Positions 10,576 to 11,559 of a DNA stretch of 11,559 nt are shown one piece after another (positions within the stretch are counted from its first letter, which is position 1; every line of letters starts with the position of its first letter). The notes beneath the pieces are model-generated. The model saw only the letters and a list, made by a program, of their open reading frames with translations. It was not told where the DNA came from and searched no databases. The DNA is taken from the IMG/VR virus record IMGVR_UViG_2877958089_000001, one strand, 5' to 3'. This stretch comes from a virus (Duplodnaviria > Heunggongvirae > Uroviricota > Caudoviricetes). The translations under genes and the position numbers were made by a program.

Positions 10576-10931
10576 AAACGCCCACCATTCCCACCCTTCT
10601 GGGGCCGGACGGCATGATATCGCTGCGTGAATATGCCGGTTATCACGGCGGTGGCAGCGGATTTGGTGGGCAGTTACGGGCGTGGAACCCACCGAGTGAA
10701 AGTGTGGATGCAGCCCTGCTGCCCAACTTTACCAGTGGCAATGCCCGTGCAGACGATCTGGTACGCAATAACGGCTATGCCGCCAACGCCATCCAGCTGC
10801 ATCAGGATCATATCGTCGGGTCTTTTTTCCGGCTCAGTCATCGCCCAAGCTGGCGCTATCTGGGCATCGGGGAGGAAGAAGTGCGACCAACAGCACATCT
10901 GAAACGCTTGCAGCGACACCAAAGGCAGTAA
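10572..10931 (+). pseudogene. B: Portal protein gene B, truncated: lambda-like for about 103 codons (to ...RYLGIGEEE), then unrelated sequence and a stop
   Basis: Start overlaps W stop (ATGA). Lambda portal is more than 500 aa; here homology ends near 10880 and the frame closes 16 codons later. Confidence 0.85.
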
Positions 10932-11030
10932 AAACAGCCTATGACAATGCCGAGAAACGTCTGCAGAAAGATCAGAACGGTGCGGATATCCCTGGCAAAG
11001 ACACCTTTACGAAAAATATTGGTGCCTGGC
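10881..11030 (+). pseudogene. Short remnant of a side tail fibre gene (frame 2), without start or proper end
   Basis: Frame-2 translation [49 protein letters not shown] resembles the repeat motif of lambdoid side tail fibre proteins (from memory). Bounded on both sides by sequence of other genes. Confidence 0.4.
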
Positions 11031-11559
11031 CGGAACTAATGAATTTATTGGTGAAGGTGATGCATATATTCCGCCTCATACAGGTCTGCCAGCAAACAGT
11101 ACCGATATTGCACCACCAGATATTCCTGCTGGCTTTGTGGCTGTTTTCAACAGTGATGAGGCATCGTGGCATCTCGTTGAAGATCATCGGGGTAAAACGG
11201 TTTATGACGTGGCTTCCGGCGACGCGTTATTTATTTCTGAACTCGGCTCATTACCGGAAAATGTCACCTGGTTATCCCCGGAAGGGGAGTTTCAGAAGTG
11301 GAACGGCACAGCTTGGGTGAAGGATACGGAAGCAGAAAAACTGTTCCGGATCCGTGAGGCGGAAGAAACAAAAAACAGCCTGATGCAGGTAGCCAGTGAG
11401 CATATAGCGCCGCTTCAGGATGCTGTGGATCTGGAGATCGCAACGGAGGAAGAAACCTTGTTGCTGGAAGCCTGGAAAAAGTATCGGGTGTTGCTGAACC
11501 GTGTTGATACATCAACTGCACCTGATATTGAGTGGCCTACGAACCCTGTCAGGGAGTAA
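11026..11559 (+). pseudogene. tfaD: Tail fibre assembly protein (Tfa) lacking its own N-terminus and start codon; C-terminus complete (stop at 11557-11559)
   Basis: Frame-1 translation [50 protein letters not shown] ... [21 protein letters not shown] matches lambdoid Tfa; no ATG/GTG/TTG in frame between the upstream stop (10942) and GTG 11137. Confidence 0.75.

Follow-up and report, generated by a model that had tools for sequence, protein, structure and literature searches.

The right end of an 11,559-base stretch of DNA (the window), which holds a defective lambdoid prophage of the DLP12 type from Escherichia coli, running from intD to the stop codon of tfa, very probably carries a non-functional scar of ordinary prophage decay, left by the illegitimate recombination that removed approximately 19 kb with the head and tail genes. 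Three gene pieces abut there: the beginning of the portal gene B, a short internal segment of the side tail fibre gene stf, and the tail fibre assembly gene tfa without its start. In an apparently complete relative, the prophage of E. coli strain A16, the same pieces lie apart in the same order and orientation, with gaps of 18,007 bp and 1,428 bp between them. The identities of the pieces, the breakpoints, the sizes of the deletions and the distribution in the population are direct observations, and the near-identity of the A16 prophage allowed both breakpoints to be mapped to the base and shows that the event was recent. The significance of the scar is small. As a cryptic prophage DLP12 is a textbook case, prophages are expected to decay by losing their morphogenetic genes through homology-poor recombination, and the structure is a rare minor allele whose pieces are already labelled as partial by RefSeq in 12 finished genomes.

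The window and the DLP12 family

Location and gene order place the window in the DLP12 family. In carrier genomes the prophage lies beside the tRNA-Arg gene argU with intD abutting the tRNA; in one of these genomes, L001, the distance between tRNA-Arg and intD is 15 nt, and the tRNA falls outside the window itself. The late region is collinear with that of E. coli K-12 MG1655 (quuD, porin, essD/rrrD/rzpD, bor, ybcV, ybcW, ylcI, nohD), with window positions 2776-8754 being 95-99% identical to MG1655 DLP12, and the right arm has the order tfa-ybcY-tfaX, which in L001 is 96.5% identical to tfaD-ybcY-tfaX of MG1655. DLP12 is common in E. coli, and its content varies across strains (PMC6379469).

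The start of the morphogenetic operon is preserved. The product of terminase gene A is identical to lambda gpA at 640 of 641 residues, and the gene, which is truncated in K-12, is intact here, as is W (Table 1), which is also annotated as a head-tail joining gene in genomes identical to the window. Positions 7927-10575 thus contain intact copies of Nu1 (nohD), A and W that remain close to lambda (178/181, 640/641 and 67/68 amino acids, respectively), yet the capsid genes are absent. Surviving DLP12 genes can be acquired by lambda through recombination (PMC3945230).

Two observations concern the remainder of the window and its surroundings. Positions 1816-1915 and 5293-5392 are runs of N, each exactly 100 long, whose places are taken in 12 otherwise identical genomes by 2,366 bp containing yfdT/yfdR/yfdQ/yfdP-like genes and by 679 bp containing the lysis genes rrrD/rzpD, respectively; since the runs stand for real sequence in identical genomes, the window was masked or scaffolded at these places. 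In the carrier genomes, to the right of the prophage (positions 16529-20423 of the L001 locus), ompT, envY, ybcH and nfrAB are missing, and a truncated alpha/beta hydrolase gene is followed by a DcrB-like gene, the type VI secretion gene vgrG and then cusS.

Table 1. Features of the window and the evidence on which their boundaries are based
Feature	Position	Strand	Basis or remark
intD	1-1164	-	left edge of window
Terminase large subunit gene A	8447-10372	+	641-codon ORF with GTG start as in lambda A; no internal stops
Head-tail joining gene W	10369-10575	+	68 codons; 67/68 aa identical to lambda gpW; intact
Portal gene B fragment, nt 1-310 (codons 1-103)	10572-10881	+	ungapped alignment to lambda 2836-3145 and to the A16 portal gene
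Junction 1	10880-10881	n/a	AG dinucleotide common to portal and stf parents (three-way alignment with A16 portal and A16 stf)
Side tail fibre (stf) relic, 144 bp (A16 stf nt 1419-1562 of 2940)	10882-11025	+	own frame; no usable start codon
Junction 2	11026-11028	n/a	CTG trinucleotide common to stf and tfa parents (three-way alignments with PhiR26_1 and A16)
Tail fibre assembly gene tfa, nt 52-585 (codons 18-194 and stop)	11026-11559	+	native start and first 17 codons lost

Three gene pieces and two junctions

The lambda-like sequence continues without interruption into the portal gene and stops abruptly. Positions 10300-10881 align without gaps to lambda 2564-3145, covering the end of A, W and nt 1-310 of B, with 97.3% identity (local blastn). 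The portal frame reads ...RYLGIGEEE and then runs through 16 unrelated, out-of-frame codons to a TAA at 10929-10931, giving an ORF of 119 codons. A full-length lambda-family portal protein (gpB, 533 aa) is therefore not encoded: codons 1-103 are all that remain, the match to Pfam PF05136 is limited to positions 2-75 of the 354 in the profile, and PGAP labels the stub "phage portal protein, incomplete, missing C-terminus". Relative to A16, 18,007 bp are missing at junction 1, from portal nt 311 to stf nt 1418. Comparison with the stf genes of phages PhiR26_1 and mEp460 had pointed to a C-to-T substitution at 10882 that arose after the deletion and to a longer, imperfect microhomology; both were rejected, because the A16 allele has a native T at this position and the microhomology is AG.

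The sequence that follows derives from the interior of stf. It is 100% identical to A16 stf over positions 10882-11028 (A16 stf nt 1419-1565; 99.3% for the alignment overall), and the segment from 10876/7 to 11028 matches the interior of stf in PhiR26_1 and mEp460 with 96.7% identity (E 5e-69, local blastn). The stf-frame peptide, SATNSTSETLAATPKAV..., begins at 10880 and matches the fibre repeat Phage_fiber_2 (Pfam PF03406, E 8e-15). The length of the relic is 144 bp if only unambiguous positions are counted and 149 bp if both microhomologies are included, out of the 2940 nt of the intact gene. The relic is out of frame with both of its neighbours, and its frame contains no ATG, GTG or TTG between the stop at 10769 and position 11039, so that no translatable stf exists here; the PGAP label is "phage tail protein, missing N- and C-terminus".

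At junction 2, 1,428 bp are missing relative to A16, from stf nt 1566 to tfa nt 51. The tfa sequence beyond it is identical to that of A16 at all 534 positions, 95.7% identical to that of PhiR26_1 and 93.6% identical to that of lambda. The frame opens with L18 of Tfa and stays open for 177 codons, and the Caudo_TAP domain (PF02413) is complete (profile positions 1-130 of 131, E 4.6e-45). The native start and N-terminus are gone, codon 18 being preceded by stf sequence in another frame, and the earliest canonical in-frame start is a GTG at 11137. PGAP and RefSeq nevertheless annotate 11026-11559 as an intact "tail fiber assembly protein" (WP_044059726.1) with a CDS that begins at the CTG of junction 2. 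This entry is better treated as a 5'-truncated pseudogene whose CTG start was created or retained by the deletion junction. Because the portal, stf and tfa pieces occupy three different reading frames (position mod 3 of 0, 2 and 1, respectively), they are fused at the level of DNA only and do not encode a chimeric protein.

These results largely bear out the original prediction, made from the sequence alone. It had followed lambda B to RYLGIGEEE near 10880 and placed an abrupt switch there, in agreement with the alignment, which ends at 10881. It had also recognised a side tail fibre motif in a different frame: the identification was right, although the frame begins at 10880 rather than 10881, and the relic itself is real, although its length of 148 bp was slightly off. 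The possibility that this segment is instead native B or Tfa sequence of a lambdoid relative does not apply, as the segment is genuine stf interior and belongs to neither gene. Finally, the third frame, which was said to enter Tfa near residue 17 with no start codon, is Tfa and does lack the native start; the residue is 18.

An unrelated feature is located in the 3' half of tfa. A scan against Rfam returned a single, strong match, to RF02111 ("IS009"; 221.6 bits against a gathering threshold of 117), on the sense strand at 11318-11516 within tfa; the match has no relation to the junctions. It overlaps 132 bp (11383-11514) with 84% identity to the second tfa fragment, which lies beyond ybcY. 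IS009 is reported to be associated with prophages (bioRxiv 10.64898/2026.05.13.724894).

An intact counterpart and the deletion events

A search of complete E. coli genomes with the stf relic alone identified the prophage of strain A16, which was isolated from an otter (NZ_CP028758, 1405443-1451322). It is an apparently complete DLP12-type prophage of ~45 kb at the same chromosomal site, with the order intD, exo/bet/gam, repressor, O/P-like replication genes, nin region, quuD, porin, lysis genes, bor, nohD, A, W, B through J and lom, followed by stf, tfa, ybcY, a second tfa fragment (tfa'), a hydrolase gene and ompT. This right arm, stf-tfa-ybcY-tfa'-hydrolase-ompT, is also found in PhiR26_1 (PV340555), an isolated phage. 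A16 is 99.5% identical to the window over 5393-10881 and 100% identical over the stf relic and tfa, and it is 99.9% identical to L001 over the 2.6 kb to the right of the window. Unlike the window, both A16 and PhiR26_1 retain the whole morphogenetic block, from which the window lacks the two segments of A16 given above. The existence of these two indicates that functional relatives of the "cryptic" DLP12 still circulate.

A16 is not the literal ancestor of the window; 23 of the 26 mismatches between them over 5393-10881 cluster within 1.3 kb at 9199-10512 (the 3' half of A, and W). The rest of the backbone is nearly identical, and the cluster resembles a patch introduced by recombination. The tRNA gene beside intD is annotated in A16 as tRNA-Gly (78 nt, positions 351-428 of the extracted locus), and in L001 and K-12 as tRNA-Arg (77 nt). 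Another full-length argU prophage, that of strain SC487, was considered as a reference for the junctions and was unusable, as its stf allele differs (88% identity over 74 bp).

Our data suggest the following course of events. The ancestor would have been a full-length DLP12-type lambdoid prophage of ~45 kb at argU, essentially like that of A16, from which two blocks of DNA were probably lost by illegitimate (RecA-independent, homology-poor) recombination. The first block, of 18,007 bp, contained the rest of B together with C, Nu3, D, E, FI, FII, Z, U, V, G, T, H, M, L, K, I, J, lom and the 5' half of stf, and the second, of 1,428 bp, the sequence from stf nt 1566 to tfa nt 51. What remains is cos-Nu1-A-W, a portal stub of 103 codons, an untranslatable stf scrap of 144 bp and tfa minus its first 17 codons. 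The two distances agree with the expectation, stated in the original prediction, of at least one large deletion of 15-20 kb plus a second event, and alignment to the A16 genes, along the lines that it proposed, yielded both breakpoints, with AG at junction 1 and CTG at junction 2.

The breakpoints themselves are consistent with homology-poor joining, which could have occurred by replication slippage, template switching or RecBCD/LigA-dependent end joining. Apart from the AG and CTG shared by the respective parents, the breakpoints show no longer homology, and they contain neither an IS element nor a site for site-specific recombination; no att site or significant repeat was found at or around the junctions either, and a repeat search returned only chance matches of 10-12 nt. 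Under a simple chance model, (k+1)(1/4)^k(3/4)^2, the probability of a shared stretch of at least 2 bp is 0.16 and that of at least 3 bp is 0.05. The microhomologies of 2-3 bp thus barely exceed chance and carry little information on mechanism.

The junctions occur together wherever they occur. The exact structure was found in 12 of 5,426 complete E. coli genomes, from differing hosts and countries, all of which match window positions 10300-11559 at 100% and, apart from the N runs, the whole window at 99.9-100%. Exact patterns of both junctions also matched three contigs among the viral contigs of IMG/VR, each containing both junctions, and had no hits in a collection of genome contigs with one genome per species. 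Metagenome contigs were scanned with the junction 1 pattern only, and the single contig recovered aligns across both junctions. In the phage collection neither junction is contiguous in any record (best query coverage, 54%), and the literature search returned only general papers on DLP12 and cryptic prophages, with no description of this allele. The runs of N elsewhere in the window raise the question of whether the junctions could be an assembly or scaffolding artefact of an N-containing source genome. The chance of this is negligible, as the junction region is continuous and reproduced base for base in the 12 independently finished genomes, the metagenome contig and the three IMG/VR contigs. 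The identical junctions in 12 independent genomes exclude an artefact, just as the alignment E-values exclude chance similarity of the pieces.

Whether the two joints arose together or in succession bears on how the scar was formed. In a single compound event of the FoSTeS/MMBIR type, template switching would have carried the replicating strand from the portal gene into stf and, 149 nt later, on into tfa. All 16 carriers of junction 1 also have junction 2, the retained piece is tiny (144 bp), both joints show 2-3 bp of microhomology, and the relic and tfa have accumulated no substitutions relative to A16, so that nothing indicates a time gap between the joints. The pairing, however, is equally expected if the carriers share an ancestor that already had both deletions, and they are 99.9-100% identical over 11.5 kb. 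A deletion between stf and tfa alone would moreover be compatible with a viable phage, which makes a sequential path easy; lambda PaPa, for example, lacks side fibres (PMC3945230). The prophage of strain LR-64-1 likewise has two nearby discontinuities in stf, and repeated hits in this region are common. We therefore regard a compound origin as possible, if somewhat doubtful, although it fits the structure as well as two successive deletions do.

Carriers of only one junction would distinguish a stepwise path, and none was found among the 5,426 complete E. coli genomes or in the pattern scans of the contig collections. The complete genomes were searched with two synthetic queries, one in which junction 1 is followed by continuing stf and one in which intact stf leads into junction 2. 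The only hits were composed of multiple pieces and represented other deletions, located in Rac and Qin prophages.

Residual function and other deletions at the locus

The scar itself most likely does nothing. With the capsid and tail genes absent, particles cannot form. Any transcription of the late operon may lead to translation of the portal stub into a peptide of 119 aa. A different possibility is that the arrangement has been kept for a useful product, the truncated Tfa or the 119-aa portal stub, which would be expressed from the intact late operon and hinder or aid the assembly of tail fibres or portals of superinfecting lambdoid phages; the scar would then be a domesticated remnant, not junk. 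The tfa remnant, with 177 open codons and a complete PF02413 domain, is called a CDS by PGAP, and the portal stub, preceded by an intact late operon, still begins at its native start, which overlaps W. There is also a precedent in StfE2: products of tail fibre remnants in cryptic prophages can block phage adsorption, and such remnants can have a role in defence against phages (PMC12529663). We nevertheless consider such maintenance very unlikely. Position 11026 has neither a canonical start nor a recognisable ribosome-binding site, the annotated CTG being the junction microhomology, and the GTG at 11137 has no Shine-Dalgarno-like sequence upstream. When 10500-11559 was scanned for promoters and terminators, no promoter-like site emerged, and the junctions gave no signal of either kind. 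The remnant is 100% identical to a recently intact gene and has had no time to decay; its frame is open because the deletion is young, and the open frame is not evidence of selection. The allele is, in addition, rare (12 of 5,426 genomes). With its frame open and its domain complete, the tfa remnant as such may have some residual function.

A loss of the same kind has shaped DLP12 of K-12. The MG1655 element (b4634/b0561) is a member of this family, also sits at argU, and has likewise lost the head and tail genes through a homology-poor deletion with its right end in tfa and 3 bp of microhomology (TAT). K-12 differs from the window in having a single junction, from terminase A nt 308 (the aaaD pseudogene) to tfa nt ~147 (tfaD); its terminase gene is destroyed, and it retains neither W nor a portal stub nor an stf relic, whereas in the window A and W are intact, B and stf survive over 310 nt and 144 nt, respectively, and tfa is cut 95 nt earlier. 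The K-12-type junction is present in 368 of the 5,426 genomes, compared to the 12 with the window type.

The end points of the K-12 deletion, at window positions 8754 and 11121, bracket both window junctions, and a nested deletion is geometrically possible: the window structure could be the direct precursor of K-12, with a later deletion of 2,366 bp from A nt 309 to tfa nt ~146 producing aaaD'-tfaD. The divergence of the two lineages makes this unlikely. K-12 and the window are 94.1% identical over tfa, 96.5% over tfa-ybcY-tfaX and 98.8% over the late region, a divergence of 5.9%, 3.5% and 1.2%, whereas the window differs from intact A16 by 0%, 0.08% and ~0.1-0.5% over the same three regions. 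Since the window is close to A16 while K-12 has diverged, the window deletions arose after the split from the K-12 lineage. A third, distinct deletion at the same locus, that of LR-64-1, also argues against descent, as it indicates that independent events are common. The K-12 deletion is thus most likely an independent event and not a later stage, a reading of sequence divergence that recombination could upset. The statement in the original prediction that the K-12 terminase large subunit is a pseudogene, and that the deletion end points there differ, was correct (aaaD is cut at A nt 308), and, of its suggestion that the window represents an earlier or an independent stage of decay, the second is favoured and the first disfavoured.

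Head and tail genes have thus disappeared from the DLP12 locus on at least three independent occasions, in the K-12, window and LR-64-1 types, a small but clear illustration of recurrent prophage erosion. In LR-64-1 the junction runs from portal nt ~150 to stf nt ~2129, with breakpoints unlike those of the window. Beyond the window, at least five further independent deletions from portal to stf or tfa were observed, in LR-64-1, in the Qin prophages of 2018-10-1CC, S1 and LZYWN_4, and in a tRNA-Ser prophage of ETEC1706. Each of these has its own breakpoints and shares neither junction with the window, yet all five resemble it in breaking off within the portal gene on the left (nt ~150 to ~1335) and resuming within stf or tfa on the right, with Nu1-A-W kept upstream and tfa and the accessory genes kept downstream.
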